Of a stretch of DNA of 64,000 nt, positions 8,854-58,767 are shown piece after piece. The stretch is from an uncultured Candidatus Actinomarinales bacterium. Lineage in GTDB: Bacteria > Actinomycetota > Acidimicrobiia > Actinomarinales > Actinomarinaceae. A program made the position numbers and the translations under genes. Within the stretch, counting starts at the first letter, position 1; each line of letters starts with the position of its first letter. Below the pieces are notes generated by a model. The model was not told the origin of the DNA. It saw only the letters and a list, made by a program, of their open reading frames with translations, and made no database searches. The stretch covers positions 746,426-810,425 of the forward strand of contig CALSSQ010000001.1 of the NCBI GenBank assembly GCA_943789065.1, in the 5' to 3' direction.

Positions 8854-8861
8854 GATTTTTA

Positions 8862-28029: not shown

Positions 28030-28038
28030 AAATAAATG

Positions 28039-28398
28039 TTAGATGACTGTGCCAATATTGTCGTGTAAATCTATTATTTTTTCAGAAGTTAGGGATAGCT
28101 TGTTCATACCTCCATTTAAGTTGAAAGAGTTAATACCTTCTTTTTCTAGAAAAGAACAGACACGTCCAGATCTTCCTCCGGACCGACAAATGATAATGTA
28201 GTTTTCGGCTGTTGAGAAATTTTCGATATTTTCAGGGATTGTACCCATAGGAATATGCTCAGCCTCTGAGTGATGCCCCGCATCCCATTCATCTTGTTCT
28301 CGAACATCAATTAGTTTATAGCCTGCCTTTAGTAAATCTTCTAACTTTTCCGGCATAACTTCTTCATTTTTATTATCCATATCGAATACCACTTGCAT
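28039..28398 (-). CDS. Rhodanese-domain sulfurtransferase
   Basis: ORF track 119 aa; active-site loop CRSGGRS. Confidence 0.75.
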   Translation of the reverse strand: MQVVFDMDNKNEEVMPEKLEDLLKAGYKLIDVREQDEWDAGHHSEAEHIPMGTIPENIENFSTAENYIIICRSGGRSGRVCSFLEKEGINSFNLNGGMNKLSLTSEKIIDLHDNIGTVI

Positions 28399-29212
28399 CC
28401 TCCCTAAGTCTTCGTACTCTTTCTGCTGTTGGTGGGTGTGTAGAAAAAAGTTTTCGCATTCCTCCTCCAGATAATGCTTTTAACGGATCTGATATAAATA
28501 ACTGACTTACAGCAGGATTTATATTCATTGGCAGTTTTGCGTATGCCTCAATTTTTTCTAGTGCTGAAGCTAGTGCTAATGGGTTACCAGAAATTTCCGA
28601 TCCTGTTCTGTCAGCTCCAAACTCCCTAGTTCTTGAGATTGCCATACGTATTATTATTGATGCTAATGGAGCTGCTATGAGAGCAATAATAAAAAACAAT
28701 GGATGAGTATTTCTATTTCTGTTACCTCCACCCCACAGAACACTCCTTGACATAAAAGATATCGTTGAAGCTAACATTGCTGCAATACTCGATACTAAAA
28801 TATCTCTATTTTTGATATGTGAAATTTCATGTGCCAATACCCCTTCGAGTTCATCATTATTTAATACCTTTAAAATACCAGTCGTAACAGCGATACTTGC
28901 ATTTTTAGGATTTCTTCCAGTCGCAAATGCATTAGGTTGGTCATTTTGAATAATGTACAATCGAGGCATGGGCATTTTTTCTTTTTGGATAAGATATTTA
29001 ACAATTCCTCTTACCTCTTCATACTCCCCATCTCCAATTTCTATTGCCTTAGTGGAGGAGAGTGCAATCTTGCCAGAATAGAAATATATTAAAAAGTTGA
29101 AAATACCAGCCAAAGCAATAGAAAAAATTAAGTTATAACCAAGTGTTTGTGCTGTAAAAAGAACAACAAGACTCATTAGGGTTAACAGAGCAGTTGTTTT
29201 TACTTGATTCAT
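28373..29212 (-). CDS. htpX: M48-family zinc metalloprotease HtpX
   Basis: ORF track 279 aa; HEISH zinc motif, N-terminal TM helices. Confidence 0.85.
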   Translation of the reverse strand: MNQVKTTALLTLMSLVVLFTAQTLGYNLIFSIALAGIFNFLIYFYSGKIALSSTKAIEIGDGEYEEVRGIVKYLIQKEKMPMPRLYIIQNDQPNAFATGRNPKNASIAVTTGILKVLNNDELEGVLAHEISHIKNRDILVSSIAAMLASTISFMSRSVLWGGGNRNRNTHPLFFIIALIAAPLASIIIRMAISRTREFGADRTGSEISGNPLALASALEKIEAYAKLPMNINPAVSQLFISDPLKALSGGGMRKLFSTHPPTAERVRRLREDASGIRYG

Positions 29213-29236
29213 GTTATTAATTATAAATGGTGTAGT

Positions 29237-30262
29237 TTATATTTTTTTTGCAATAAGCATCTTGAACCCACCTAGACCACGATTATTGTTAATTGCCTCT
29301 AAACCAACAAGATCAGACTTGATTTTTAATTTATCTAATCCGTCAGCATTTTGAAATTTGGTTTGAATTTTTTTATAAAAAGCTTCAAAGCCGTTCAATT
29401 GTAAAAATTCTTTTTGTGTGTGGAGTTCGACTGCGTAATCTAATCTTGATAAACAGTTCTTTATACTAGAAAAATTTACATCATAGGTTATATCAGTTGT
29501 TGTTGGTTGAAGCAATGTTTCACCTGCAAGATGATGATTTTTATAGGTTCTTATAAGTGACTTATAGGGGATGCTTGACCTTTCATGAAATTCATAACCG
29601 TAATCAATTATGAGAAGATAATTAGGATTAAATCTTGATACGATACCTTCAAGATATTTTGTTGCATTTCTCTGAATCTCAATCTCAATGTCATCTAAGG
29701 GCTCAATATTGTTAGATTCTATCCAAGTTAAATTTTCAGGCCTCATGGGCGCTAATTCATAACTTAGTGAATCAGATTCTATTTTAATAATTTTTTCGAG
29801 CCATACACCATCTTTATATACACCAACAGAGCATGGTATATTATCGAGGACTTCATTCATGTATACTAAATTAACTTTATCAACTGGAATCAAATCCAAA
29901 GTTTCAAAAACATTAAATTCTTTTTGTTTCAGAATTCTGAATGCGGTATTTGATTTTTCGACAAGAAAAAGATTATTTGTTGAATATTCTTGAATCTGCG
30001 TAGCCAATGAGCCAGTACCCGCCCCAATTTCTACTACATTAGATTTAATTTTATTTTCATTCATCCAGTGTGAAATAAACTTTCCAAAGTATTTAGATAC
30101 TTCAGGTGACGTTAGGAAATCACCTTCTATGTTAGATCGAACTTTTGTAGTATTGAAGAACCCAGATTCTGAATAAAGACTTTCTTCCATGTATTCATCA
30201 AAAAATATGTCGTTGCGTTGATATTTTTCTTGAAGATGTTTTATAAAATTAAAGCTAGACAA
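29237..30262 (-). CDS. Class I SAM-dependent methyltransferase, MidA/NDUFAF7-like (COG1565-type)
   Basis: 341 aa; GDFLTSPEVSKYFGKFISHWM resembles the MidA DFxTSPE motif, VVEIGAGTGSLA resembles the SAM-binding GPGRGTL block; 5 bp downstream of nuoN on the same strand. Confidence 0.6.
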   Translation of the reverse strand: MSSFNFIKHLQEKYQRNDIFFDEYMEESLYSESGFFNTTKVRSNIEGDFLTSPEVSKYFGKFISHWMNENKIKSNVVEIGAGTGSLATQIQEYSTNNLFLVEKSNTAFRILKQKEFNVFETLDLIPVDKVNLVYMNEVLDNIPCSVGVYKDGVWLEKIIKIESDSLSYELAPMRPENLTWIESNNIEPLDDIEIEIQRNATKYLEGIVSRFNPNYLLIIDYGYEFHERSSIPYKSLIRTYKNHHLAGETLLQPTTTDITYDVNFSSIKNCLSRLDYAVELHTQKEFLQLNGFEAFYKKIQTKFQNADGLDKLKIKSDLVGLEAINNNRGLGGFKMLIAKKI

Positions 30263-30267
30263 CCTTA

Positions 30268-31668
30268 TTAACTATTAAAGAATAATGCCGAAGCATTACC
30301 TAGATTTGAAAAAATATTTGGAAAAATTCCTGCAAGAAATGTAATCACTAGACTTATGAAACCAACTACTTTTAAGGGGCTCAACAGTACAGGTTTAGTA
30401 TTAATTGTTATATTTTCAGATGGAGAATCCATCCAAATTATTTTTGAAATTCTTGCGTAGAAAACAAGACCAATGACTGCATTAATCGCTCCAATAATCG
30501 CCAACGTTATTCCATAGACTTCACCGGTACTTAGCAAGCTTCTAAATACAACGAACTTTGCAAACCAACCACCTAGTGGTGGTATTCCAGCAAGTGAGAA
30601 GAAAAATACAGTTGCAAAAATAGCTGTTAATGGTTGATGTTTTGCTAGGCCTCCCCATTCATAGATATCGTTACTGCCACTAGTATTTATAAGAACATTT
30701 ACGACAAGAAATGCGCCCAAGTTCATGAATGCATAAATAATTAAATAAGTGACGCTGGCATAAATTCCATCAGCATAGTCTCCTGAAATTCCAGCTACTG
30801 CAAGTGGAGCTAAAATAAATCCCGCTTGAGCTATTGACGAATATGCTAAAAGCCTTACTGGATTTGATTGTTGAAGGGCAGATAAATTTCCGATGAACAT
30901 TGTTAGACCTGAAATAAAGACCAATACAATACCCCAACTTGAACCTGAATCTGGGAAGACCTTTGTAAGGATAATCATTAATGCTACGAAACCAGTCGCT
31001 TTAGAACTAACTGATAAATAAGCTGTTACTGGAAGCGGTGATCCCTCATATGTGTCTGGTGCCCATGAATGAAAGGGGACAACCGAAATTTTAAAACCTA
31101 TACCAGCCAGTATTAACATTACGCTCAATAACGCCGCTGGTGATGTTGACAGATTGTTTACTAATAAGATTTTAGAAATTTCAGAAAAGATTAATTCTCC
31201 GGTCAATCCGTAAAGTAAAGAGAATCCATACAAAATGAGTGATGCAGATAATACTCCTAACAAGAAAAATTTAATTGCTCCCTCGTTAGACTTTTGATCT
31301 CCTTTTTTCCAGCCAGACAATAAAAACATAGGTGCAGAAGCTAATTCAATACCAATAAAAAGTGTCAGCATATCTCTTGATGATGTAACAACCAGCGCTC
31401 CGAGTAGTGAGCTTAATAGTAGGTAGTAATACTCCCCCTGGTAATATCTGTCACTTTCTATAAAGTTAATTGAAAGCAGGAATGTAAGATAGGTCACCAA
31501 GATAAAAAGGCCTTTTAAAATAATAGAAAATTTATCAATAACATAGCTTCCTTCAAAAAGGATTATTGGATTTTCGTAATTTACCCACTGAAAAATTAGA
31601 GGTAGGAAGGAAATCAATGATCCCAGTAGTGCAACTAATGCAATGTAAAATTTTGACCTTCTTGGCAA
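30268..31668 (-). CDS. nuoN: NADH-quinone oxidoreductase subunit N (operon 1)
   Basis: ORF track 466 aa; antiporter-like membrane subunit, operon position. Confidence 0.88.
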   Translation of the reverse strand: MPRRSKFYIALVALLGSLISFLPLIFQWVNYENPIILFEGSYVIDKFSIILKGLFILVTYLTFLLSINFIESDRYYQGEYYYLLLSSLLGALVVTSSRDMLTLFIGIELASAPMFLLSGWKKGDQKSNEGAIKFFLLGVLSASLILYGFSLLYGLTGELIFSEISKILLVNNLSTSPAALLSVMLILAGIGFKISVVPFHSWAPDTYEGSPLPVTAYLSVSSKATGFVALMIILTKVFPDSGSSWGIVLVFISGLTMFIGNLSALQQSNPVRLLAYSSIAQAGFILAPLAVAGISGDYADGIYASVTYLIIYAFMNLGAFLVVNVLINTSGSNDIYEWGGLAKHQPLTAIFATVFFFSLAGIPPLGGWFAKFVVFRSLLSTGEVYGITLAIIGAINAVIGLVFYARISKIIWMDSPSENITINTKPVLLSPLKVVGFISLVITFLAGIFPNIFSNLGNASALFFNS

Positions 31669-31750
31669 AATGAGATCGAAAAATATTGTAGCTATAATTG
31701 TAAAAACAACAATTAATTCACTAGAAATTGCAAGGTAATTAATGGAAATA

Positions 31751-33340
31751 TTAGCCTCCGAATGCTTTAGTAACCAAACTGATTACAGCATCATTTGTAG
31801 ATCCGAAAATTAACTTAGGAAATACTCCAATTAAGATTGTTAAAATAACGAGGGGTATCCAAGCTGCTAATTCGTATGCATCCGCATCATGGAGTTTTTT
31901 ATCTTTCCATTCGTCATTTGGCTCTCCTAAATTAACTCTTTGAAGCATCCAGAGTAAATAGCCAGCAGTCAGAACTGTACCTATTGCCCCAGCAACCATG
32001 GATGTTCTGAATATTGTGATATTTAGTCCTGGTAATGGATTGTATGCTCCTAATAGAGCCATAAATTCTCCCCAGAAGCCTGCTAGTCCAGGTAGTCCAA
32101 GTGAGGCCATTGCTGTAAATGCCAGTAATCCACCAGTTTTGGGCAAAAGTTTCATATTTCCACCAAGTCTTCCCATATCTCTGGTGTGATAAGTGTGAGC
32201 CATCGATCCAGATAAGAAGAAAAGTAAACCCGTAATTACACCGTGTGCAACCATGCCAATTATTGCAGCATTAATACCAATAGATGTCAAAGAGGAGATT
32301 CCTAGCATTACAAAACCCATGTGACCCACTGATGAAAAAGCTATTAGCCTTTTGAGGTCAGTTTGTGCTAGACATGCTAACGAACCATAAATTATTCCAA
32401 TAGCTGACAGTATTGCAATCGCTGGTGCCCAAGCTTGTGCTTGCTCAGGTAAAATTGGTAAAGCAATTCTTACAAATCCATAGGAACCTAATTTTAGAAG
32501 TATTGCGGCAAGTAATACTGATCCAACTGTTGGTGCTGCCGTATGAGCATCTGGAAGCCAAGTATGGAGAGGCCACATTGGAACCTTAACTGCGAAGCCC
32601 AGAAATAGAACTGCAAAAACGAGTGTTGCAAAAGTTCCAGTAAATGCCCCACTTGTTCCTAATTCTATTAACTCAGGAATACTGAAAGTTTTGGCTCCTC
32701 TGAAATAAAGTCCTAAAAATCCAAGCAGCATAAAAGCAGAACCGAAAAGTGTAAAAACAAAAAACTTAATACTTGCATATAAGCGAGTCTCAACCTCATT
32801 TTTAAGACCAGCAACACTCCTCATTGTTTTATCTCCCCAAATTCCAATCATGAAATACATAGGTAGTAGGACAAGTTCAAAGAATACAAAGAAGAGTATT
32901 AAATCTAAAGCTACGAAAGTACCATTCATTCCAGTTTCTAAGATTAAAATAAGCGCCATCATTCCCTTTGGACTTTTTGGCTCAGGTAAATGCTCGAAGG
33001 AATAAATTATTGCTAATACTGTAATAAAGGTTGAAAGAAGCAGCATGGGTAGGGATATGCCATCAATACCAATTTCATAATTAGAATTTATTGCCTCTAT
33101 CCAAGAAAGTTTATTTCCCAACTGAAACTGTTCTGCTTTGGAGTAATCAAACTGAATAGCAACAATTACGCTTAATATGAAAGTGATTAGTGAAGAACCA
33201 AGTGCTGTTAACTTTATCAATAACTCTTGTTTTTTTGGCAATAGTGCAACGACTAAAGCACTTAATAGAGGGAGGAATACAACCAAAGTTATACCCAGTC
33301 CATTCTCTAAAAATTCAAAATTATTAGTTACTATTTCCAC
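31751..33340 (-). CDS. nuoM: NADH-quinone oxidoreductase subunit M (operon 1)
   Basis: ORF track 529 aa; Mrp-antiporter-like, WLPDAH motif. Confidence 0.9.
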   Translation of the reverse strand: MEIVTNNFEFLENGLGITLVVFLPLLSALVVALLPKKQELLIKLTALGSSLITFILSVIVAIQFDYSKAEQFQLGNKLSWIEAINSNYEIGIDGISLPMLLLSTFITVLAIIYSFEHLPEPKSPKGMMALILILETGMNGTFVALDLILFFVFFELVLLPMYFMIGIWGDKTMRSVAGLKNEVETRLYASIKFFVFTLFGSAFMLLGFLGLYFRGAKTFSIPELIELGTSGAFTGTFATLVFAVLFLGFAVKVPMWPLHTWLPDAHTAAPTVGSVLLAAILLKLGSYGFVRIALPILPEQAQAWAPAIAILSAIGIIYGSLACLAQTDLKRLIAFSSVGHMGFVMLGISSLTSIGINAAIIGMVAHGVITGLLFFLSGSMAHTYHTRDMGRLGGNMKLLPKTGGLLAFTAMASLGLPGLAGFWGEFMALLGAYNPLPGLNITIFRTSMVAGAIGTVLTAGYLLWMLQRVNLGEPNDEWKDKKLHDADAYELAAWIPLVILTILIGVFPKLIFGSTNDAVISLVTKAFGG

Positions 33341-33348
33341 TTTTCCTC

Positions 33349-35367
33349 CTATAACACTAACAAAATTAATAAGCTAATTACTATTACTCCGCTTAAAAAA
33401 TACATAATATACTGTTGAGCTTTTCCAGTCTGAAGAAGTTTTACTCTTGCACCCAATGCGTCAGTAGATGAAGATGATATGTTTAATGCTTTATCTATCC
33501 CCCCTTGGTCAAATTTGTTGTACACGATATTTCCAAGGAATATAGCAGCAACTCCAAATAGATTCACAGCTTTGTCTAGAATATTTGTGTTAAATCTATC
33601 AACAGTATTTGCAAGTGTGGATTTAGTTGGATTTATGATGTATTTGAAATAAAAATCATCTAAGTAATATTTATTTTCAAGAAGATTCCATATTGGCTCA
33701 ACTTTAATCTTTTCATCTCCATCTTCTGGTCTACCTAAAATTTGATAGACATAGTAAGCAAGTCCAATACCAGCTAGCCCGGCGAGTAAGCCACTTGTTA
33801 ATGCAAAGTAGTCAAAAGATTCAGGATGATACTCGACTATAGGGTTTTTCCTTGTGGTCACCCAATCAGTAAAGCCCGTATATATTCCTGGAATGTTTAC
33901 CCACCCAGCAGTTACTGCGAAGCCTGCAAGTACAATAAGAGGTGTCGTCATCATAGAGTCTGACTCGTGTGGATGACCATTACCTCTATATTCCCCAAAG
34001 AATGTCAGAACCACGGCTCTAGTCATATAAAAAGCAGTGATAAAAGCACCTGCTACAGCAATAGCAAAATAGGTGTTATATCCTCCGTGATTTAAAGAGG
34101 CGAGTATCTCGTCTTTTGAGAAAAAGCCAGCAAGAGGGGGCAGTCCTGTAAGAGCAATTGTTCCCAGAATAAATGTTGTATATGTTCTGGGCATCTCTTT
34201 TTTGAGCCCACCCATTTCTTTCATGCTGTTTGTATGTACGGCATGAATTACTGATCCTGCACCAAGAAACAGTAGGGCTTTAAAAAAAGCATGTGTCCAA
34301 AGGTGAAATAATGCAGCTGTATAGGCTCCAGATCCAATAGCAGCCACCATATAACCAAGCTGACTGACAGTTGAATATGCGAGAACTTTTTTGAGATCAT
34401 CTTGAACTATGGCTATCATTCCAGCTGCAAAAAGGGTTATAACTCCAAACAGCAAGACCACGTCCAATGCTTCGCTTGCCATACCTTCATAAAAAGGAAA
34501 CATTCTTGCTAGTAAATAAACACCTGCTGTGACCATTGTTGCTGCGTGCATTAGTGCTGAGACTGGTGTTGGACCTGCCATTGCATCAGGTAGCCAGACA
34601 TGAAGCGGGAACTGAGCACTTTTACCCATAGCCCCTATAAATAGTAAAACTCCAGCCAGATAGGCAACTGATTTAAGTGACTCATAATCATGAGTTGATT
34701 GATATAAAATTTCACTTATTCTCATCGTACCTGTAGAAAGCGCCAGCACAATTATTCCAATCATTAATCCAACATCTGCAATTTTGTTGGTTATAAAAGC
34801 CTTCATAGCAGCAGATGAGTTTTCTTTCTTTTCCCAATAATGACCAATTAACAAATAGGAGCAAACACCTACTAGCTCCCAACCAATTAAAAGTTGTAAT
34901 AATGTTGGTGAGGAAACCAAAACTAACATACTTCCAGCAAACAAAGTTAGAGAGGTGAAGAAAAAAGTATATCTGACTTCTCCCTGCATATAATTTGTGG
35001 CGTAAATGAAAACTAAACTAGCCACTGTCCCTACAACAAAATACATCATTATAGAAAGACCGTCTACCACCCAACCAAATTCAAGATCAAATGAACCAAT
35101 GCTTCCCACATTGATAAAAAATTCTGAAGCTACTCCTTCTGTCACATTTAAATAGAGTAGGTATGAACTGAAAGCAAAGATGAAACCTATCGTAGCAAGC
35201 GCAATTTCAGCACCCTTAAGTGGTAGATATTTTCCAAAGAAAGTAATTAGAAGAGCAGCTATAAATGGGAGAACAACAATCAACCAAGTGTACTCAGCGA
35301 AAGTTCCACCATCAGTGTATGTAACTTTTCCTTCAGCTAGAAAGGTGATTAAATTACTATTTACCAT
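33349..35367 (-). CDS. nuoL: NADH-quinone oxidoreductase subunit L (operon 1)
   Basis: ORF track 672 aa; WLPDAMAGPTPVSALMHAATMVTAG motif. Confidence 0.92.
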   Translation of the reverse strand: MVNSNLITFLAEGKVTYTDGGTFAEYTWLIVVLPFIAALLITFFGKYLPLKGAEIALATIGFIFAFSSYLLYLNVTEGVASEFFINVGSIGSFDLEFGWVVDGLSIMMYFVVGTVASLVFIYATNYMQGEVRYTFFFTSLTLFAGSMLVLVSSPTLLQLLIGWELVGVCSYLLIGHYWEKKENSSAAMKAFITNKIADVGLMIGIIVLALSTGTMRISEILYQSTHDYESLKSVAYLAGVLLFIGAMGKSAQFPLHVWLPDAMAGPTPVSALMHAATMVTAGVYLLARMFPFYEGMASEALDVVLLFGVITLFAAGMIAIVQDDLKKVLAYSTVSQLGYMVAAIGSGAYTAALFHLWTHAFFKALLFLGAGSVIHAVHTNSMKEMGGLKKEMPRTYTTFILGTIALTGLPPLAGFFSKDEILASLNHGGYNTYFAIAVAGAFITAFYMTRAVVLTFFGEYRGNGHPHESDSMMTTPLIVLAGFAVTAGWVNIPGIYTGFTDWVTTRKNPIVEYHPESFDYFALTSGLLAGLAGIGLAYYVYQILGRPEDGDEKIKVEPIWNLLENKYYLDDFYFKYIINPTKSTLANTVDRFNTNILDKAVNLFGVAAIFLGNIVYNKFDQGGIDKALNISSSSTDALGARVKLLQTGKAQQYIMYFLSGVIVISLLILLVL

Positions 35368-35666
35368 TTCAACAAATCAAATTCATCAATATTTGCAGTT
35401 TTTCTATTTCTAAACAACATTAAAACAATCGCCAAACCAATCCCTACTTCAGCAGCGGCTATGGTGATAATGAAAATAGTAAAAATTTGACCCTGTAATA
35501 ATGCATCTCCTAACATTGCATTGAAGACTACAAAGTTTATATTCACAGCATTGAGGATTAACTCGATAGACAACAACACCATAACAACATTCCTTCTAAC
35601 TAAAATTCCATAAATCCCAATTGAAAATAATCCTGCTGCTGCAATTAAAAAAGGCTGAGCACTCAT
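35361..35666 (-). CDS. nuoK: NADH-quinone oxidoreductase subunit K (operon 1)
   Basis: ORF track 101 aa; 3-TM NuoK-like, AAAEVGIGLAI motif. Confidence 0.9.
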   Translation of the reverse strand: MSAQPFLIAAAGLFSIGIYGILVRRNVVMVLLSIELILNAVNINFVVFNAMLGDALLQGQIFTIFIITIAAAEVGIGLAIVLMLFRNRKTANIDEFDLLKW

Positions 35667-36181
35667 ATTTGATTCTCGTCAACTAAGGCATTATCTTGCC
35701 TTGCCAAGGTGATTCCACCAATTAAAGCGGCTAGTAAAACGAAAGAGACTACTTCAAAAGGAAATACAAACCTGCTTAATAAAATCTCACCCAGTAATTC
35801 TGTTGAGGTTCCGGTTGTAACAATAATTTGCGAATCGAATGTGTTAAACATCACATATGAAAAAATTACAAAAATTGATAGAGAGACAACTAATGCTAAA
35901 CTTTTGTTCTTATCATTATCTAGTTCCGCATTTTGACCTAATGGCGCTCTAGTGATCATTATTCCAAATAAGAAAAGAACTATTACAGCACCTATGTATA
36001 CAAGAACTATCACCAGTGCAACAAATTCCGCGGACAGTAGTAAAAAAGTTGCAGCTGTTATAGCTAATGTGAAAACTAAAGATATTGCTGCATGAATAAC
36101 GTTTGAAGTTGTGACAACTTTTACAGAAACTAATAAAAGTCCTAAAAGTAAAAAATAACTGATGATGTCCAGTGCTTCCAT
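35663..36181 (-). CDS. nuoJ: NADH-quinone oxidoreductase subunit J (operon 1)
   Basis: ORF track 172 aa; operon position, membrane protein. Confidence 0.85.
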   Translation of the reverse strand: MEALDIISYFLLLGLLLVSVKVVTTSNVIHAAISLVFTLAITAATFLLLSAEFVALVIVLVYIGAVIVLFLFGIMITRAPLGQNAELDNDKNKSLALVVSLSIFVIFSYVMFNTFDSQIIVTTGTSTELLGEILLSRFVFPFEVVSFVLLAALIGGITLARQDNALVDENQI

Positions 36182-36182
36182 T

Positions 36183-36668
36183 TTAACTCTCTAAACCTTC
36201 CACTTCAGGAACTGTGTTTAGCCATTGATCGAGTCTATTTTTATCATGAAGCATATCCCCCATATTGTATTCTGAATATTCGTACTCTGGTGTCCAAAAC
36301 AATGCATCAAAAGGACATACCTCAACACAAATTCCGCAATACATGCAGAGAGCATAGTCAATATCGAACCTGTCAAGAACTGCTCTACTGCGTTCCCTAC
36401 CACCAGGTTTTGCAGGGGGTTGTAATTCTTTATGTCCTTCTATGTAAATACACCAATCTGGGCATTGTCTCGCACAAAGCATGCAGCTAGTGCAAGCATC
36501 TGTATCAAGTGCTATGACTCCCCTTGCTCTGGGTGCAACAATTTCTTTTTCAAATGGGTAATTAACATTTGGATTTGGACTTAGTGGAGATAATGTCTTG
36601 AACATATTAAATAAAAGAATTTTCATTCCAGTCAAAAAGCCAGGTAATTTAGGTCTAAATTTTTTCAT
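36183..36668 (-). CDS. nuoI: NADH-quinone oxidoreductase subunit I (operon 1)
   Basis: ORF track 161 aa; two ferredoxin-type 4Fe-4S motifs (CxxCxxCxxxCP). Confidence 0.92.
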   Translation of the reverse strand: MKKFRPKLPGFLTGMKILLFNMFKTLSPLSPNPNVNYPFEKEIVAPRARGVIALDTDACTSCMLCARQCPDWCIYIEGHKELQPPAKPGGRERSRAVLDRFDIDYALCMYCGICVEVCPFDALFWTPEYEYSEYNMGDMLHDKNRLDQWLNTVPEVEGLES

Positions 36669-37649
36669 TTAAAATACAACTTTCATTATGGATGTTATCA
36701 ATATGTTGAGTAAAGAAAGCGGAATTAAAACCTTCCATGCTAAGTTTTGTAGCTGATCTTCTCTGAATCTAGGAAATGACCATCTCACTAAAACTAATAT
36801 GAAGCCCAGCAAAACTGTTTTAGTAATTAAGACAACTGGTCCATAAAAGTTGACCCATTCAGGTGGGAGAAGTGGGACATGATATCCACCTAGAAATAAT
36901 GTGGAAGCAACTGCACATAATACAAACATGTTCATGTATTCAGCAATATAAAATATTAAAAATCTTACGCCAGAATATTCTGTTAAAAATCCACTAACAA
37001 GTTCGGACTCACCAATTGGCATATCGAATGGTACTCTCATCATTTCAGCTGTTGCAGCTATCATAAAAATTAGGAAGGCAAGACCTTGGCCAGAAAGTGC
37101 AAATGGAAGTCCAAATTCTATTTGTTTCTCAACTATCCCAACAAGTGACATGGTTTCTGCCTGGATGACAACTCCAACTACTGCAAGAATTAATGGAAGT
37201 TCATATGCAATTAACTGTCCTGCAGCACGTATTCCACCCATTAAAGAGTACTTGTTTGCTGAGGACCAACCTGCAGTAAGAACCCCTAGTGTTGATAGCG
37301 AACTTATCGCTAGCAAATAGAAGACTCCTAAATCTAAATCACTCCCAACTAAAGTTGGGCTAATTGGTACAACAACGAATAAACCGAAGACTGATGCAAG
37401 TACATAAGCTGGTGCCCATTTAAAGACAGGAGCGTCAACATTAGTCGGTGTGATGTCTTCTTTTTGGAAAAATTTAATTATTTCAGCTAGTGGAAAAATG
37501 AATCCTCTTAATCCAACATGAAGGGGGCCCGGTCTTCTTTGCATCCATGATGCTCCTTTAACATCGAGAATTGTAAATATTACTGCTCCGTTTAGTGCAA
37601 AAGCTAAAACGATACCTGCAGTTACTAATATCTGAGATCCATCAATCAT
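36669..37649 (-). CDS. nuoH: NADH-quinone oxidoreductase subunit H (operon 1)
   Basis: ORF track 326 aa; NuoH/ND1-like. Confidence 0.9.
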   Translation of the reverse strand: MIDGSQILVTAGIVLAFALNGAVIFTILDVKGASWMQRRPGPLHVGLRGFIFPLAEIIKFFQKEDITPTNVDAPVFKWAPAYVLASVFGLFVVVPISPTLVGSDLDLGVFYLLAISSLSTLGVLTAGWSSANKYSLMGGIRAAGQLIAYELPLILAVVGVVIQAETMSLVGIVEKQIEFGLPFALSGQGLAFLIFMIAATAEMMRVPFDMPIGESELVSGFLTEYSGVRFLIFYIAEYMNMFVLCAVASTLFLGGYHVPLLPPEWVNFYGPVVLITKTVLLGFILVLVRWSFPRFREDQLQNLAWKVLIPLSLLNILITSIMKVVF

Positions 37650-38842
37650 CTATCAACATCCCCTAAAACAAAATCTAGACTGCCCATGATTGCAATCAGA
37701 TCAGGTAACAATTGACCTTCAAGCAGTACTGGGAGGATGGAAATATTACTAAAGGACGGTGTTCTAATTTTTAGTCGGTATGGACCTAGACCACCCTCAG
37801 AAATTACATAGTATCCCATTTCACCTTTTGGATTTTCTGTCCTTACATAAGATCGTCCCTTAGGTACTTTTATAACCTTTGGAACTTTTGTCTGTAGGGG
37901 TCCACTTGGCATGGAGTCAATAGCTTGAAGTATAATTTTAGCTGACTCTCTCATCTCTAGTAGTCGAACATACCAACGATCATAACAATCTCCATTTTCT
38001 CCAACAGGAATCTCGTATTCAAATTTGTCATACGGTAAGAAATCGGTTTGAGTCCTTAAATCAAACTTTACTCCAGATGCTCTCAATATCGGTCCAGAGA
38101 CTCCATATTCTTCAGCAAGTTCTTTGGATATTATCCCAACTCCTTTAGTCCTAGCCTTAAAGACTTCGTTGCCACCAACTAAATCTTCCATTCTCTCAAC
38201 AGCTTCTAGAACCTTCTCCATTGCGTCTCTAGTTTCTTGATAGAAACCTGCTGGTAGATCTTGTACATTTTTTTTGGTTGTGGGGCCCGAACCTGCTGCT
38301 GGTTTTACTCCACCTATTCTATTAAAATTTGGATGAAACCTACCACCTGTTACTGATTCTATTAAATCAAGTATTCTTTCTCTATCCTCCATTGCTAAAA
38401 ATATAGGAGTTAACGCCCCGATCTCTAATGCATAAGCTCCATTGAATACAAAATGAGAAGCAATTCTTGCCATCTCTGTGAGAATCAACCTGATGTGCTT
38501 TGCTCTTTCAGGTGCTTCTATCTCCATTAGCTTTTCAGTTGCAGCAATGAAAGGTATCTCATTAGCAAAACCTGATACCCAATCAATTCTATTAACAAGT
38601 GTTGTAATTTGGGGATATGTTCTGACCTCAGCTAATTTTTCATAGCCTCTGTGCATATAACCTAGAACAGGCTCGACACTTGAAATTTTTTCTCCATCTA
38701 CTTTGGCAACCAGTCTTAATACACCATGTGTTGAGGGATGTTGTGGGCCAATGTTTAGAGTCATGTCTTCAGTTTCTATTTCAACTGAGACCGAAGCTTC
38801 TGAAACATAAGGAACATTTCCTGTATTTAAAATATCATCCAT
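37646..38842 (-). CDS. nuoD: NADH-quinone oxidoreductase subunit D (operon 1; start placed at ATG 38842 after AGGAAG RBS)
   Basis: NIGPQHPSTHGVLRL and GYMHRGYEKL motifs typical of NuoD/49-kDa subunit; the longer ORF-track start overlaps nuoC. Confidence 0.92.
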   Translation of the reverse strand: MDDILNTGNVPYVSEASVSVEIETEDMTLNIGPQHPSTHGVLRLVAKVDGEKISSVEPVLGYMHRGYEKLAEVRTYPQITTLVNRIDWVSGFANEIPFIAATEKLMEIEAPERAKHIRLILTEMARIASHFVFNGAYALEIGALTPIFLAMEDRERILDLIESVTGGRFHPNFNRIGGVKPAAGSGPTTKKNVQDLPAGFYQETRDAMEKVLEAVERMEDLVGGNEVFKARTKGVGIISKELAEEYGVSGPILRASGVKFDLRTQTDFLPYDKFEYEIPVGENGDCYDRWYVRLLEMRESAKIILQAIDSMPSGPLQTKVPKVIKVPKGRSYVRTENPKGEMGYYVISEGGLGPYRLKIRTPSFSNISILPVLLEGQLLPDLIAIMGSLDFVLGDVDR

Positions 38843-38843
38843 T

Positions 38844-39395
38844 TTAATTATCTTCCTTTGAACCGTTTTCTGGCATACCTTCGACATCTACTTCACCAGG
38901 CCATGGCTTAACTTCTCTACTGATCAACTCAAATGATTTGAGCATTGGATTTCCCTCGTAGTCATCTGGAAGATACATTTTTGTGAGGTTTGGATGATTA
39001 TTGAACTCGATACCAAACATTTCGTATGCTTCTCGTTCGTGCCAATTAGAACCTGCAAAAACCTCAATTAAGGATGGAATCATTGCATCTTCTTTTTCTA
39101 TTTCAGTAGATACTAAAACAACATTTCCTTCAATTGACTCTGACAAGCAAAAAACTATTTCAAAATGTGGTGATACTGATTCTTTCGGGGGGTCTCCTAC
39201 TGAAACTTCATTTTCCCAATCAATGGCGCTTAGCCATGAAAAGTAAGTAAGTTGAAATTCTTCTTTAAGAATTTTTGCTGTTTCTACCCATTCTTCTGGT
39301 TTTACTTTTATTTTTAGGGTATCAAATTCATTTTCTACACTAGAAAATTTTGTAGATATTGACTCAATAAACTCTGCATTGCTAGACAGGTTCAT
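38844..39395 (-). CDS. nuoC: NADH-quinone oxidoreductase subunit C (operon 1)
   Basis: ORF track 183 aa; NuoC/30-kDa-like ([12 protein letters not shown]). Confidence 0.9.
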
Positions 39396-39879
39396 TTTGA
39401 TCTGCTTTCCATTTTTCTTTCATGTCTTCTCCTCTTATTTTTTCTTGTAGGAGAATAATTCCCTCTTGTAAAGCTTCAGGTCTTGGAGGACATCCTGGAA
39501 CGTATACGTCAACAGGGATAAGTTGATCCACACCTTTTGTAACAGAGTATGAATCCCAATATGGACCACCGCTATTTGAACAGGAACCCATAGATATGAC
39601 ATATTTTGGCTCTGGCATTTGATCATATAGTCTTTTTACTGCTGGTGCCATTTTGTCTGTGACTGTTCCAGCGACAACCATTAAATCAGCTTGTCTTGGT
39701 GATGCAGGTAGTGGGATAATTCCAAGTCTCATAAAATCATGTCTGGGTCCACTTACTGCCATAACTTCTATTGCACAGCAAGCTAATCCAAATTGGAAAT
39801 ACCACAAAGAGTATGACCTAGCCCAGTTTAAAACTGACGATATCGGTTTTGGTAATCCGAATTTATCAACTACTCCCAT
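39382..39879 (-). CDS. nuoB: NADH-quinone oxidoreductase subunit B (operon 1)
   Basis: ORF track 165 aa; N2 cluster ligands CCAIE ... [10 protein letters not shown] ... [11 protein letters not shown]. Confidence 0.93.
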
Positions 39880-40235
39880 TTCAATACATCCTTTCTAATT
39901 GCATAAATTAATCCGATTAACAAAATAAAAATAAAAACTAGCATTTCCACTAAACCAAAATAACCTAACTTCTCAAGATTAATTGCCCATGGGAATATGA
40001 ATACTGCTTCAACATCAAAAATTACGAACAATAGGCCAAAAATATAGTATCGAATGTAAGTCTGACTCCAACCTGTCCCGACGGGGTCAACACCTGACTC
40101 GTAGGTTGTAAGTTTTTCAGGAGAGGGATTATTCGGCCTGAGGATAGCTGCAATAGATGTCAAAATGAGCATAAATATAATGCCCACTGCTAACAATACT
40201 GCTACTGTTGCGTACTCCTGAAAATAAGAATTCAT
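39870..40235 (-). CDS. nuoA: NADH-quinone oxidoreductase subunit A (operon 1)
   Basis: ORF track 121 aa; 3-TM NuoA-like, first gene of operon. Confidence 0.88.
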
Positions 40236-52465: not shown

Positions 52466-53938
52466 TTAGAGGTAATTTTGAACTACCCATCGGGAAATGT
52501 TTATGAGGATATTTGGAAACAATCCTAATGTAATGGTTAAGCCAGCAAGTACACCAACGGAAATTTTATCATTCAATTTCAATTGAATCGGTGGAACGCT
52601 GTTCTCAGGTTTATCTATTGCGGCAATCCATATTGGCTTCAAATAAAAGTAAAAACCTGCAACAGTTGATAGCATCAGTGCAAAAACTAGAATATATTTT
52701 TCATATGACCACAGATTGGTGATAAGAATAAATTTCGATACAAATCCACTTGTTAGAGGCAGTCCAGCAAGGCCTAACATAAAAATACTAAAGCATATAC
52801 TCAAATATTTATTTTCTATAAACAGGCCCGAAAGATTTTCCATGGAGAAATCTGATGATAGCTCACCAGTAATTACTGAGAATATAAGGAAGATTCCAAT
52901 TAACTGAACAATATAAGCAGCAAGATAAAATAATGAAGCACTTGTTCCATTTACTCCAGAAGTTATTCCTGAAAGAATAAATCCAGATTGAATTACTCCA
53001 CTGTAAGCAATCAATCTTTTCATGTCCGTTTGGACAGTTGCAAATAGTGAGCCTATAAGAATTGAGAGTATTATTATTGCAGAGAAAAATAATTCGAACT
53101 TATCCATTACCAAACCGAGAGAAACTATACATAGCCTTGCTAGTACAACAAAAGATGCAACTTTTGCTGTAGCGGCCATAAACCCTACATAGCCTGTGGG
53201 TGATCCTTGGTACACATCTGGGGCCCATGACTGGAAAGGGGCTGCTGCTACTTTAAATAACAGACCAATTATGAGTAATAAAATACCGACGAGTGTTGTT
53301 AAGGGAATGTTTTCAATCCCAATGAAGGAGATAGCAATAGTTGTTTCGTAGACTCCAGTAATTGAGAGGGATACATACATTAAAGAGATTCCATATACCA
53401 AGACACAGGATGCTAAAGAACCTAGGAGGAAATATTTAAGAGAGGCTTCATTACTTAATAAACTACCTTTGTTGATCCCAGCTAAAGCGTATAAACTAAT
53501 TGACCCAATCTCAAGTCCAATAAAAAGCATCATGAAATTTTCAGAATCAACCATGAGCATAAATCCTGCGGTACTCATTAAGGTGAGAATTATAGCTTCT
53601 GTTGTTTTGTCCTTTAGTTCAAAAGAGGAATTCCAAATTGGATAAAAATTTAATAAAAGAACTAAGCCAAGTAAAACATTACCAAAAAGTGAAAATTCGT
53701 CGAGAAGAATTTTTTCTGAGAAGTATGATGAAGGGCCCGCTGTTGAAAATAATCCAAATTTTAAAAATATAGTAAATAGTGTCATAAATATTCCACTAAT
53801 AGTCACTACTTTTTTGACATTGTCAGAAGTATTAATGGTTATAGTGCAAAACAACAATACCAGAGCTGTTCCCACTAAAGCCAATGTTGGTCCGATAACT
53901 ATCCAGTTAAGACCAATAATCTGTGAGACTGTGTTCAA
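52466..53938 (-). CDS. nuoN: NADH-quinone oxidoreductase subunit N (operon 2)
   Basis: ORF track 490 aa; distinct sequence from operon-1 nuoN. Confidence 0.88.
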   Translation of the reverse strand: MNTVSQIIGLNWIVIGPTLALVGTALVLLFCTITINTSDNVKKVVTISGIFMTLFTIFLKFGLFSTAGPSSYFSEKILLDEFSLFGNVLLGLVLLLNFYPIWNSSFELKDKTTEAIILTLMSTAGFMLMVDSENFMMLFIGLEIGSISLYALAGINKGSLLSNEASLKYFLLGSLASCVLVYGISLMYVSLSITGVYETTIAISFIGIENIPLTTLVGILLLIIGLLFKVAAAPFQSWAPDVYQGSPTGYVGFMAATAKVASFVVLARLCIVSLGLVMDKFELFFSAIIILSILIGSLFATVQTDMKRLIAYSGVIQSGFILSGITSGVNGTSASLFYLAAYIVQLIGIFLIFSVITGELSSDFSMENLSGLFIENKYLSICFSIFMLGLAGLPLTSGFVSKFILITNLWSYEKYILVFALMLSTVAGFYFYLKPIWIAAIDKPENSVPPIQLKLNDKISVGVLAGLTITLGLFPNILINISRWVVQNYL

Positions 53939-55437
53939 TTTAAACCTCCGCTAAATAATTCAACTACATTCGTAATTATTTGTGCATCATTTAATACATA
54001 ACTTTCAATAAAAGATGGGTATACACCAATAAATAGCATTAAAACCAAAAGTGGTATCACTGAAACCAGCTCTCTAGTATCTAAATCATGTAAGTTTTCG
54101 TTTTCTTCATTATTAATTTCACCTGTAAACATCCTTTGATATGCCCATAACATGTAAATTGCCGCAAGAACCACACCGAAGGCAGAAATGGCTGATAATA
54201 ATTTATACGTACCAAAACTTCCCATTAGAATCATAAATTCTCCTACAAAACCATTTAATCCGGGAAGTCCAATAGATGCAAAAGATGTAAATAGAAAAAT
54301 TGCAGCGTATTTAGGCATTGTAATTTTGAGTCCTCCAAAATCAGAAATTCGTCTAGTGTGACGTCTTTCGTAAACAAAGCCAACTAGCATGAAAAGCGCT
54401 CCAGATGTTAATCCATGATTTACCATTTGAATAATTGCGCCCTCAAGGCTTAAAAGATTACCTGAGGATATTCCAAGCATTACAAATCCCATGTGACTAA
54501 TTGATGAGTATGCTATCAGTTTTTTGATATCTATCTGTGCAATCGCTACAACAGCTCCATATATAATTCCAATGACAGATAAGATAGCAATTATGTCTCT
54601 GTACTCTAAGAATCCTTCTGTGAAAAATGGTATTGATACTCTTAAAATTCCGAATGCGCCCACTTTTAATAACACTCCAGCTAATAATATACTTCCAGCT
54701 GTTGGGGCTTCGACGTGCGCATCTGGAAGCCAAGTATGCAAAGGAAAAAGAGGAACTTTAACTAAAAATCCAAATGTGAATAACAGAAAAAGTGCTTTAG
54801 ATTGTTGGGAAGTAAAATTTAAATTAGATAAAGTTACATAATCTAAAGCTAATGTACCGGTCTGTGAGTAACTTATAACTCCGGTATAAACAGTCCCTAT
54901 AAATATAAATATGGAACCAAAAACTGTATAAATTATAAATTTAATTGTTGCATATCTTCTATTGTCTCCACCCCAAATACCCATTAAAAAATACATAGGG
55001 ATCAATATTGCCTCAAAAAATATGAACAGAGAGAGTAAATCTCCACTCAAGAAAACACCATTAACAGCAAAGTGTAAAACTAATATAGAACCAATAAAAC
55101 CCTTACTTTTTGAATAATTTTCTGTAACCGAAAGAAAGGATAGAAGAACCAATATTGATGTTAACGACAATAAAAGATGGGACATTCCTGAAAAACCTAA
55201 ACTAATCTTTATTCCATAAGAACTTATCCAGTTTATAGAATCAAATTGTTGGTAGGAATCCTTGCTATTCTCATTTGAAAATAAATATAAGCACACGCTA
55301 AATGGAATGATTGAAAGAAATATTGCTAAAGGTTGAAATAGCTCAAATCTCTTTTTTGGCATTAGAAAAATGACCACTGCTCCAAATAGTGGAAACAAAA
55401 TAAGAGTATAAATTAAGCCACTCAATTTGATACCCAT
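53935..55437 (-). CDS. nuoM: NADH-quinone oxidoreductase subunit M (operon 2)
   Basis: ORF track 500 aa; WLPDAH motif. Confidence 0.9.
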   Translation of the reverse strand: MGIKLSGLIYTLILFPLFGAVVIFLMPKKRFELFQPLAIFLSIIPFSVCLYLFSNENSKDSYQQFDSINWISSYGIKISLGFSGMSHLLLSLTSILVLLSFLSVTENYSKSKGFIGSILVLHFAVNGVFLSGDLLSLFIFFEAILIPMYFLMGIWGGDNRRYATIKFIIYTVFGSIFIFIGTVYTGVISYSQTGTLALDYVTLSNLNFTSQQSKALFLLFTFGFLVKVPLFPLHTWLPDAHVEAPTAGSILLAGVLLKVGAFGILRVSIPFFTEGFLEYRDIIAILSVIGIIYGAVVAIAQIDIKKLIAYSSISHMGFVMLGISSGNLLSLEGAIIQMVNHGLTSGALFMLVGFVYERRHTRRISDFGGLKITMPKYAAIFLFTSFASIGLPGLNGFVGEFMILMGSFGTYKLLSAISAFGVVLAAIYMLWAYQRMFTGEINNEENENLHDLDTRELVSVIPLLVLMLFIGVYPSFIESYVLNDAQIITNVVELFSGGLN

Positions 55438-57311
55438 GGTGTAGCAATAAATAGCCCGATTAGTAGAAGCATAAAAAATCCAAAATAAACAACATAGCTT
55501 CTTACGAGACCATTCTGTGATCTTGAGACTTTTTGTGAGGAGTTGTAAAACAAACTAGATATTTTGTTAACTAAGCCATCAATCAAGAGCCCATCAACAA
55601 CAACAGCGGTTTTTCTAGAAAATGATTTCATACCCTTTACAAATATGACTTCACCAAATTTGTTTAAATATAGGGTATTTGAAGACAGCTCTTTTATTTC
55701 TTCTTTGAGTGGAATCTTGACTTTAAAATATGCAAGTATATCAACAATATATATCAGATAAGCAAGCAATAAACCTGTAAATCCAGCACCTATCGAAACT
55801 ACTGCGAGGATAATCAATGTAATCCCCTCAGGAAGATGCGTTATGTCTACATAATGTAGTGTTTCCTCTAGGACTTTTTCTAATCCGTGGAAAAAAGGAG
55901 TATTAATAAATCCAATAAAGAATGAAAATATGCCCAATACAATAAGGGGCCTTACCATCGCTTTTGGTGCCTCATGAACTTCACTGATGTCGTTTCCAGT
56001 TTCTTTGTGAAATATTAATAACCAGTGTCTTCCCATATAGAAAGCTGTCATAAAAGCAGCCAATAATGAGAGAGCCCAATACCCGTAATAGAAGCCACCA
56101 TTTGCAAAAGTGGAAGCGAGTATTTCGTCTTTTGACCAAAAACCTGCAAGTGGAGGGATTCCTGATATTGCTAATGTACCTATACCCATCATTGCAGCGG
56201 TAATAGGCATTTTTGTTTTTAAGTTCCCCATTTTATGAATATTTTGCTCGTGATGCATCTCGTGAATTACAGCACCTGCCCCCAGGAATAGGAGAGCTTT
56301 AAAAAATGCGTGAGTTACTAAATGAAAAATTGCTGCAACATATGCCCCTGATCCTATAGCAATAAACATGAACCCTAATTGAGAAATTGTGGAGTAAGCC
56401 AAGACCTTTTTTATATCATCTTGGTTAATTGCAGAAAAAGCTGCGATCAAAGCAGTCAACAGTCCTGCTGTAATGATGATTAGTTTCCCCGTTTCCGAAA
56501 ACTGTAATATTGGTGAGATTCTTACAAGCATGAAGACACCTGCCGTAACCATTGTCGCTGCGTGTATTAAAGCACTGGCCGGTGTGGGTCCTTCCATTGC
56601 ATCTGGTAACCAACTAAAAAGTGGAAACTGTGCAGACTTACCAAATGCTCCAATAATAAAACAAATTACAATAATGCTTAAACTTTCACGATTCCCATTT
56701 AAGACTTCAGAAAAGACTTTTTCGTAATTGAATGTTCCAAAGGTGTTCAACGTCAGCATTAATCCAACTAGGAACCCAAAATCTCCTATACGATTGAGAA
56801 TGAAGGCTTTGTTTCCAGCTTTTGCAGCTGACTGTTTTTTTGACCAGAATGATATTAAGAGATAGGAACTCAGTCCAACTAACTCCCAGCCAAAAAACAT
56901 CACTAAAAAATTTCCCGACATAACTAATAGCAACATAGAAAATACAAACACATTAAAATATATAAAATATTTGGAGTAATTCTCATCTTTACTCATGTAC
57001 GATGTTGAAAAGATTTGAATGACAACTGATAGCCCTGTTACAAGAAGCATCATGATTCCAGAAAGACCGTCCAAAGTAAATTCAAATAATATTTCTGGAC
57101 TTGGAATCCATGTAAATAATTCTAAGTGAATAGGCTTGAACTTATCTGAAAGAAGTAGACCAAACATTCCGCAGGCTGTTGCAAAAGATAGAAGTGCTGA
57201 GTTAATTGTTAAAAAATTTAGTAAAAGTTCATTTACTAAATTTGAAATAATCTTAATCCCAATGGCTGTTAACAATGGTAAAAATATAATTACTAAAAGT
57301 AAATTTTCCAC
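55422..57311 (-). CDS. nuoL: NADH-quinone oxidoreductase subunit L (operon 2)
   Basis: ORF track 629 aa; WLPDAMEGPTPASALIHAATMVTAG. Confidence 0.92.
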   Translation of the reverse strand: MENLLLVIIFLPLLTAIGIKIISNLVNELLLNFLTINSALLSFATACGMFGLLLSDKFKPIHLELFTWIPSPEILFEFTLDGLSGIMMLLVTGLSVVIQIFSTSYMSKDENYSKYFIYFNVFVFSMLLLVMSGNFLVMFFGWELVGLSSYLLISFWSKKQSAAKAGNKAFILNRIGDFGFLVGLMLTLNTFGTFNYEKVFSEVLNGNRESLSIIVICFIIGAFGKSAQFPLFSWLPDAMEGPTPASALIHAATMVTAGVFMLVRISPILQFSETGKLIIITAGLLTALIAAFSAINQDDIKKVLAYSTISQLGFMFIAIGSGAYVAAIFHLVTHAFFKALLFLGAGAVIHEMHHEQNIHKMGNLKTKMPITAAMMGIGTLAISGIPPLAGFWSKDEILASTFANGGFYYGYWALSLLAAFMTAFYMGRHWLLIFHKETGNDISEVHEAPKAMVRPLIVLGIFSFFIGFINTPFFHGLEKVLEETLHYVDITHLPEGITLIILAVVSIGAGFTGLLLAYLIYIVDILAYFKVKIPLKEEIKELSSNTLYLNKFGEVIFVKGMKSFSRKTAVVVDGLLIDGLVNKISSLFYNSSQKVSRSQNGLVRSYVVYFGFFMLLLIGLFIATPWVSN

Positions 57312-57314
57312 TAA

Positions 57315-57623
57315 CTAACCTCTGGAAGTTCTTAGTAAGTCCACAGATGCTGAAGATTGTTTTTTAAATATTGAAACTATTATGGCCAAACCTACAACTA
57401 CTTCAGCAGCAGCCACCACTAGAACAAAAAATACGGAGATTTGTCCTTCTATTGTTCCAAAATGTTTTGACGCAGTTATGAATGTTAAATTTACAGAATT
57501 AAGCATAAGCTCTATGCACATAAACATAATCAATGCATTTCTTCTAATCATCATCCCCAGGAAGCCGATTGAAAATAAGATAGCGGCTAATGTTAAATAC
57601 CAGTCTGTTGAAACCTCTATCAT
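57315..57623 (-). CDS. nuoK: NADH-quinone oxidoreductase subunit K (operon 2)
   Basis: ORF track 102 aa; NuoK-like. Confidence 0.9.
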
Positions 57624-58144
57624 TTTGGTTTCCTTACTTTTGTATCATAAGCTAAAGCAATAGCTGCAGCTGTAGCAACAATAAGTAATATTGAAATTAT
57701 CTCAAATGGGAGAACCCATTCAGTAAATAGACTTGCAGCAATTAAATCCGGTGTACCCTCTAGGCTATACTCGACTGCAGGAAAGTAGAGATCCCACTTA
57801 AAACCAGAATTTACAACAACAAATGAAACTAGACCAATCAAAATAAAAAGGGTTCCTGAGACCAGAAGGGTTTGACCTTTAATTTCTTCTCTTGTTTGTT
57901 CAGGCTTATCAACACCGATCATCATTATCACAAATAAAAATAAAGTCATTACAGCCCCGGCGTAAACTAGCATTTGGACCATAGCCACAAAGGTTGCATT
58001 CAGAGTGATATAAATTATTGCAAGTGATGCGAGTGTTAAGACTAAACCCATTGAATTGTGAACTGGATTTTTAGCGAATATAACTATTAAAGCTCCTAGA
58101 ATTACTAGACCTGCTGGTACTGCAAAAAGTAGTAGTTCTAACAC
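57620..58144 (-). CDS. nuoJ: NADH-quinone oxidoreductase subunit J (operon 2)
   Basis: ORF track 174 aa; operon position. Confidence 0.85.
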
Positions 58145-58149
58145 TTTTT

Positions 58150-58764: not shown

Positions 58765-58767
58765 CTT

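Follow-up and report, generated by a model that had tools for sequence, protein, structure and literature searches.

A MidA/NDUFAF7-family methyltransferase gene closing the 11-gene nuo operon of a Candidatus Actinomarinales bacterium, with NuoD1 Arg80 as its candidate substrate

The stretch of DNA analyzed in this study, hereafter the window, comprises 64,000 nucleotides (nt) of contig CALSSQ010000001.1 from an uncultured Candidatus Actinomarinales bacterium. It contains a gene, here called midA, which directly follows nuoN, the last gene of a run of exactly 11 nuo genes without nuoEFG (nuo operon 1), and which encodes a member of the MidA/NDUFAF7 family of S-adenosylmethionine (SAM)-dependent methyltransferases. 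NDUFAF7 is essential to complex I assembly in human mitochondria. The residue that it methylates is Arg85 of the subunit NDUFS2 (PMC3829151), where the product is symmetric dimethyl-arginine (PMC3750175), and the equivalent arginine was found at position 80 of NuoD1, which is encoded in nuo operon 1. An initial annotation of this DNA, made from the letters and their open reading frames (ORFs), had described an 11-subunit nuo operon upstream of midA with midA beginning 5 bp past nuoN on the same strand. The ORFs (Table 1) confirm both points, and the junction was read in the sequence as the nuoN stop TAA, the spacer TAAGG and the midA start TTG.

In the Pfam profile search, the midA product was assigned to PF02636 (Methyltransf_28, formerly DUF185, the MidA family; COG1565) with 90.3 bits (E 1.7e-25, residues 63-271) against a cut-off of 23.3 bits, in agreement with the family that had been suggested initially, and all other methyltransferase families remained under their own cut-offs. 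Two other assignments were considered and rejected. An rRNA adenine dimethylase is represented by RrnaAD PF00398 (18 against a cut-off of 24), KsgA TIGR00755 (24.6 against 171) and Erm NF000499 (14.6 against 212). A methyltransferase of rRNA or small molecules in general is represented by the KsgA, Erm, UbiE, CbiT, DREV and PRMT5 profiles, all of which are below cut-off and match the SAM-binding region alone; the DREV profile scored 25.1 against 26. No NCBIfam family reached its curated cut-off for the midA product, and this collection apparently lacks a MidA model. The closest relatives found in the database searches are all from Acidimicrobiia. Since the source databases already label relatives as 'SAM-dependent MidA family methyltransferase', membership of the gene in the MidA family is not new in itself. 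Among proteins of solved structure, phmmer found Dictyostelium MidA (5ztz, E 2.4e-7), a Burkholderia COG1565 protein (4f3n, 3e-7) and a Rhodopseudomonas DUF185 protein (1zkd, 3e-5), all of them at distant similarity only.

The DFxTSPE-like motif and the SAM-binding glycine block that had been noted earlier are located at residues 47-56 and 77-87 respectively. In an alignment of 42 homologues, D48, F49, T51, P53, E54, V55 and S56 of the first motif and G80, G82 and G84 of the second were observed to be invariant. Three later family motifs (NEVLDN, 136-141; DYGY, 220-223; TDITYDVNF, 256-264) align to 5ztz and 4f3n and are also invariant in the 42 sequences, where a total of 38 positions do not vary, the family motifs among them. 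The AlphaFold2 model built from these homologues is compact, with alternating strands and helices, and has a mean predicted local distance difference test score (pLDDT) of 91.1 and a predicted template modeling score (pTM) of 0.90. With Foldseek, the MidA structures came first, with a query template modeling score (TMq) of 0.76-0.79. The Dictyostelium MidA chain 5zu0_A was matched with E 1.1e-21 and a TMq of 0.79 over 392 columns, 5ztz and 4g67 also with 0.79 and 1zkd with 0.69-0.71, whereas the first methyltransferase families outside MidA reached a TMq of at most about 0.41. By all sequence and structure criteria that could be applied, the midA product is a MidA/NDUFAF7-family methyltransferase with a class I SAM-binding core.

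The likeness to human NDUFAF7 and Dictyostelium discoideum MidA (5ZTZ, 5ZU0) extends over PF02636, the whole-chain fold with its additional domain formed by insertions into the core, and the DFxT(A/S)PE and GxGxG motifs, and it includes the candidate substrate, as NuoD1 has the same HRGxE arginine beside cluster N2. The window protein differs from these proteins in being about 20% identical, in its length (341 residues as opposed to roughly 400-440) and in having no mitochondrial targeting sequence. Its gene ends a structural operon, whereas the eukaryotic genes are unlinked nuclear genes; the linked complex here is without the NADH-oxidizing N-module (NuoEFG), and the activity is predicted from sequence. 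The proteins of R. palustris (1ZKD) and B. thailandensis (4F3N/4G67) are bacterial members of the same family, with TMq values of 0.69-0.79. E. coli is not known to have a MidA homologue. A further variant of the family was observed in two relatives of 534-536 residues (P0139 and P0144), in which the MidA domain lies at about residues 195-530 after an N-terminal extension of about 190 residues; for P0144, the precomputed Pfam list contains PF02636 and PF12804, which points to a fusion protein.

The protein encoded by midA is conserved across more than 100 independent loci, with identities of 27-99%. Of the 44 Actinomarinales genome loci, 43 have an intact frame, and all 44 have a spacer of 3-8 nt and a TTG (31) or GTG (13) as the first in-frame start. 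Many database entries for this gene are 317 residues long and begin at Met25. A start at the ATG of codon 25 was rejected, as residues 5-24 are retained in tblastn matches with as little as 47% identity, correspond to the N-terminal helix of Dictyostelium MidA and are confidently modeled by AlphaFold2. The gene was found to diverge faster than its neighbors, with 47-50% identity where Nuo subunits hold 71-93%. In two loci, one from a single amplified genome (L042:10001-11003) and the other at L124:162-1086, the midA match falls into two pieces a few nucleotides apart, which could be due either to a frameshift introduced by faulty assembly of single-cell or metagenome data or to an occasional pseudogene.

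In NuoD1, Arg80 lies in the sequence GYMHRGYEKL and aligns with the arginine of the mitochondrial LLHRGTEKL and with the threonine of the Thermus Nqo4 sequence YLHTGFEK, so that the claim of the initial annotation that the NuoD of this operon keeps the arginine holds. Its partner in NuoB1 is a threonine of the mitochondrial type (VVAGTVT), and NuoB1 retains all four cysteines of cluster N2 (C34, C35, C100 and C130). The HRG of NuoD1 (R80) and the AGT of NuoB1 were found in 46 of 46 loci that include these genes, two of which are from Acidimicrobiia outside Actinomarinales.

The bacterium has a second nuo operon of the 14-subunit type, which is cut by the end of the window. Its NuoD2 and NuoB2 were therefore read in a contig whose NuoF is identical to that of the window (L088; NuoD2 at 8038-9393, NuoB2 at 7167-7628). 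NuoD2 has GYLHTGMEKT, with threonine at the position of Arg80, and NuoB2 has IVAGRVS, with arginine. The target residue DISCRIMINATES between both complexes of one genome, with NuoD1-Arg/NuoB1-Thr in one and NuoD2-Thr/NuoB2-Arg in the other. The NuoD of M. smegmatis (8e9g), the closest solved relative of NuoD2, has the same HTG motif, and the second complex exactly matches complex I of Thermus thermophilus and Mycobacterium smegmatis in carrying Thr in Nqo4/NuoD and Arg in Nqo6/NuoB. It serves as the contrast case, having no arginine to methylate and an operon without a MidA gene. An inter-subunit switch of this kind has been described in which Nqo4 Thr is paired with Nqo6 Arg83, the arginine filling the same space by cluster N2, where mitochondria have Thr (Hameedi et al. 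2021, PMC8042128). The switch, earlier described between Yarrowia and Thermus, is here reproduced inside one genome, and mixed NuoD/NuoB pairs would place either two arginines or none beside cluster N2. Judged from these alignments, Arg80 of NuoD1 is the sole predicted substrate arginine of the NDUFS2 type in the cell, and it sits in the complex whose operon ends in midA.

Table 1. Positions of midA, its motifs, the proposed substrate and the surrounding features in the window
Feature	Position	Strand	Description
midA	29237..30262	minus	341 codons, start TTG at 30262-30260, stop TAA; MidA/NDUFAF7-family (PF02636) SAM-dependent methyltransferase
N-terminal family motif GDFLTSPEVS (residues 47-56)	30095..30124	minus	aligned to Dictyostelium MidA GDFITAPEVS
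SAM-binding motif I VEIGAGTGSLA (residues 77-87)	30002..30034	minus	aligned to MidA VEMGPGRGTL
Spacer from nuoN stop to midA TTG	30263..30267	minus	5 nt, TAAGG; a promoter or terminator would not fit
nuoD1, proposed substrate protein	37646..38887	minus	PF00346, 283 bits; best solved relative T. thermophilus Nqo4, E 1.9e-102
NuoD1 Arg80 codon (HRGxE motif)	38648..38650	minus	equivalent to NDUFS2 Arg85
NuoB1 Thr72 codon (VVAGTVT)	39664..39666	minus	mitochondrial-type partner of the NuoD arginine; NuoB2 has Arg there
nuoN	30268..31668	minus	stop TAA
nuo operon 1 (nuoA,B,C,D,H,I,J,K,L,M,N)	30268..40235	minus	ORFs, synteny in 44 loci, Pfam on NuoN/NuoD/NuoB
htpX-like M48 membrane protease	28373..29212	minus	Pfam; 24 nt downstream of midA
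Rhodanese gene	28039-28398	minus	Pfam; overlaps htpX
pfkB-family kinase gene	27073-28029	minus	Pfam
Second nuo operon, 14-subunit type with nuoE,F,G	52466..63888	minus	ORFs; cut by the window end, its NuoD/NuoB beyond the window
Heliorhodopsin gene, between both nuo clusters	42287-43090	minus	PF18761, 294.8 bits

The position of midA behind nuoN was found to be fixed in the marine clade. The order nuoA..N-midA-htpX-rhodanese-pfkB is invariant in 44 of 44 Actinomarinales species-representative genomes, in which MidA is 47-99% identical, and nuoN is directly upstream of midA in all 14 metagenomic Actinomarinales loci that extend far enough upstream (58 of 58 in Actinomarinales in all). Both of the two loci from the sister clade (MidA identity 40-42%) show the same adjacency. 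In the full-library HMMER and profile searches, the next relatives, at about 30% identity, were members of a large clade of Acidimicrobiia.

On balance, with slightly more confidence than doubt, we favor the reading that midA encodes a MidA/NDUFAF7-type SAM-dependent protein-arginine methyltransferase, placed distally in nuo operon 1, with Arg80 of NuoD1 as its likeliest substrate. It is ranked first mainly because the target arginine is confined to the NuoD linked to midA, which is independent of gene order. A bacterial counterpart of the mitochondrial assembly step is plausible here on the basis of the aligned residues, and a dedicated NuoD1 methylation step, which the initial annotation had suggested from the operon linkage, appears to be a well-motivated proposal. 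The midA gene would be co-transcribed as the distal gene of the 11-gene operon and might be translated weakly from its non-ATG start, possibly by re-initiation past the nuoN stop. Such low translation would fit a sub-stoichiometric factor that closes a structural operon, and a non-ATG start is kept in 44 of 44 loci. The enzyme would bind nascent NuoD1 and symmetrically dimethylate Arg80, in the HRGxE motif beside N2 on NuoB1, before or during the docking of NuoB1. The dimethylated Arg80 would then stabilize the N2 site during assembly of the NuoD1-NuoB1 module of the complex that has no N-module. The proposed step mirrors the action of NDUFAF7 on NDUFS2 Arg85, as proposed for mitochondria (PMC3829151, PMC8042128).

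Several observations weigh against this reading. In 40 loci of other Acidimicrobiia, each with at least 1.5 kb of sequence upstream of midA, nuoN was found within 700 bp in nine and at 0.7-10 kb in six, and it was absent from the available upstream sequence in the remaining 25. The adjacency of midA and htpX is about as frequent in other Acidimicrobiia (10/41) as that of nuoN and midA (9/40), and the run often continues as htpX-tuf-rpmG...secE-nusG-rplK-rplA. The pattern in the wider Acidimicrobiia looks like slow neutral decay of an old gene order and not like specific selection on nuo and midA. No nuo gene was found within 10 kb of midA in any of 36 loci that represent other phyla (24-29% identity; Campylobacterota, Verrucomicrobiota, Bacillota and others; alphaproteobacterial loci were not sampled). 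The linkage to nuo put forward by the initial annotation is thus borne out in Actinomarinales and the sister clade and is mostly lost beyond them. The 5-nt gap between nuoN and midA is ordinary for this genome and uninformative, as the median intergenic spacer in Ca. Actinomarinales is 2-3 bp (PMC7771536), and the same-strand run goes on into htpX, the rhodanese gene and pfkB, which have no obvious link to complex I. Because the order erodes outside the marine clade and the tight spacing is uninformative, the linkage alone is suggestive but not compelling. Identity to characterized MidA proteins is only about 20%. The E. coli residue NuoCD R249 is unmodified (PMC3750175), which means that the arginine alone is insufficient for methylation. 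So far, prokaryotic MidA proteins have had their function inferred only in silico, and a Wolbachia MidA was reported to methylate DNA upon its expression in E. coli (PMC12455994).

Much of this would also be expected of a genuine MidA methyltransferase acting on another substrate, either a protein arginine or a nucleic acid, whose position after nuoN is an inherited order in a compact genome; we regard this explanation as possible but clearly less probable. The loss of nuoN from 25 of the 40 loci, the absence of nuo genes from the other phyla, the midA-htpX(-tuf) order kept to a similar degree as nuoN-midA, the short spacers of the order and the Wolbachia report are all consistent with it. The same is true for a gene found upstream of midA on the opposite strand in seven of ten sampled loci in which nuoN is unlinked (L110, L112, L116, L127, L140, L144 and L156). 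This divergent gene encodes a TIGR03619-family F420-dependent luciferase-like monooxygenase (LLM)-class oxidoreductase (222-250 bits against a cut-off of 166.9, NCBIfam, in three loci). What argues against another substrate is that the family has no experimentally established substrate other than the NuoD homologue (PMC3829151), that the target arginine is present exactly in the midA-linked NuoD paralogue and not in NuoD2, and that several lineages keep the adjacency over MidA identities ranging from 99% to about 28%.

Two side observations were made in these loci. The six loci with nuoN at 0.7-10 kb have glgB, toxin-antitoxin or other genes inserted, and in one Acidimicrobiia genome a gene for a PemK-type toxin lies with a small partner gene on the opposite strand exactly between nuoN and midA (L085:7370-7908), which indicates that the nuoN-midA junction is unprotected from insertion in larger genomes. 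The F420-dependent neighbor is of note in view of a proposed use of F420 by the truncated nuo cluster.

An action on complex I other than the proposed one, either as a binding or assembly chaperone in which methyl transfer is dispensable or with a different subunit or both complexes being modified, appears improbable. The operon position is silent on which subunit is the target, and methylation reportedly weakens the binding of MidA to NDUFS2, as would fit a function by hold and release. Retained catalysis is nevertheless suggested by the SAM-binding and catalytic-core motifs, which do not vary among the 42 diverse homologues, and NuoD2, being without the arginine, offers no equivalent site in the second complex. 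Decay or loss of function of the ORF is very unlikely, for although the gene evolves faster than the nuo genes and its match in L042 is split in two, the frame is intact in 43 of 44 loci, 38 positions including the motifs are invariant, the compact model is confident and the genomes are streamlined.

A more far-reaching form of the NuoD1 methylation reading, which we offer tentatively and consider rather unlikely to hold in full, is that Acidimicrobiia keep in one cell two complexes with opposite solutions for the arginine at N2, that MidA is an assembly factor specific to the NuoD1 paralogue, whose dimethylated Arg80 would give the complex without an N-module an N2 site of the mitochondrial type, and that the switch and the methylation together prevent mixing of NuoB and NuoD between the complexes. 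The proposed methylation of NuoD1 in itself makes a concrete prediction, namely dimethyl-Arg80 on NuoD1 and nothing equivalent on NuoD2. In a tryptic digest, the unmodified NuoD1 peptide cleaved after R80, without the +28.03 Da, is ISSVEPVLGYMHRGYEK (also given as ISSVEPVLGYMHR). If Arg80 is dimethylated, the missed-cleavage peptide ISSVEPVLGYMH-R(+28.031)-GYEK should be found, as trypsin skips dimethyl-Arg. The bacterium provides a natural experiment, with two paralogous complexes in one small genome and only one of them having both the target arginine and a methyltransferase gene at the end of its operon. Should the prediction fail, the case would caution that little about function can be read from the place of a gene in an operon when the genome is streamlined.

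The MidA family, the modification, its occurrence in one bacterium and the inference of the same role for alphaproteobacterial homologues are already known. The bacterial precedent is Nqo4 of P. denitrificans, in which R65 carries symmetric dimethyl-Arg (PMC3750175), and bioinformatic and structural evidence indicates, according to a review, that alphaproteobacterial NDUFAF7 homologues mediate this methylation (PMC9006661). Three aspects appear to be new in the searchable literature: the placing of the gene in this operon in Acidimicrobiia, its association with the paralogue without the N-module and the reciprocal Arg/Thr switch in one genome. The present case differs from the proteobacterial MidA proteins and P. 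denitrificans Nqo4 in that it concerns a bacterium of the phylum Actinomycetota and the class Acidimicrobiia, with the candidate target in an 11-subunit paralogue and not in the canonical 14-subunit enzyme. It also has support from the gene neighborhood, which was found in none of the 36 loci sampled from other phyla, alphaproteobacterial loci not being among them. If the more far-reaching reading with two opposite N2 solutions is true, this would be the first gene-neighborhood evidence of the NDUFAF7-NDUFS2 partnership outside Proteobacteria and mitochondria. The case bears on the many bacterial relatives of NDUFAF7, whose function has so far been inferred (PMC12455994, PMC9006661). It also makes midA a candidate accessory factor for the poorly understood 11-subunit complex of Acidimicrobiia.

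NuoD1 was observed to have further unusual features. Trp103 ('RIDW', codon at 38579-38581) replaces the quinone-ligating tyrosine (Thermus Nqo4 Tyr87, 'RMDY') in 46 of 46 loci (window; L001-L045, L096-L107, L143, L162), while His54, equivalent to Nqo4 His38, is retained; NuoD2 keeps the tyrosine ('RMDYLS'). About 22-25 residues near the C-terminus ('...SMEALIHHFK.YTEGF...') that are found in NuoD2, Thermus Nqo4 and cyanobacterial NdhH are missing from NuoD1, which carries in addition a 13-residue insertion (PAAGSGPTTKKNV). The membrane-bound hydrogenase-type homologues 6cfw_L and 6u8y_L align to NuoD1 in one stretch. Because of Trp103, the missing segment and the insertion, the 11-subunit complex may have a non-canonical acceptor site with an acceptor chemistry unlike that of canonical complex I.

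In the gene run around midA, neighbors either overlap or are 0-24 nt apart, and the htpX, rhodanese and pfkB genes are probably on the same transcript as midA. Strand, spacer and gene order fit a place of midA in the transcription unit of nuo operon 1, and co-transcription would follow from this arrangement. In a promoter and terminator scan of positions 26500-41000, shuffled sequence yielded more sites than the DNA itself; nothing, a terminator included, was placed at the nuoN-midA junction, and the scan was otherwise uninformative. By far the largest spacer of the otherwise overlapping operon is a gap of 82 nt (31669-31750) that separates nuoM from the TTG called as the start of nuoN and that reflects either a mis-called nuoN start or an internal element; a promoter-like match in this gap sits on the opposite (+) strand (31670-31698).

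Lopez-Perez et al. 2020 (PMC7771536) described both nuo clusters, with the heliorhodopsin gene that separates them, in Ca. Actinomarinales, whose genomes are strongly streamlined with few dispensable genes retained. The 11-gene cluster was described there as a truncated nuo paralogue without EFG, near heliorhodopsin and possibly coupled to F420. The word 'methyltransferase' never occurs in that paper, so that the methyltransferase gene at the end of the cluster is unmentioned there. Genes of an Fe3+ ABC transporter were found at 43322-45903, and their layout with the heliorhodopsin gene fits the one published for Ca. Actinomarinales (PMC7771536).

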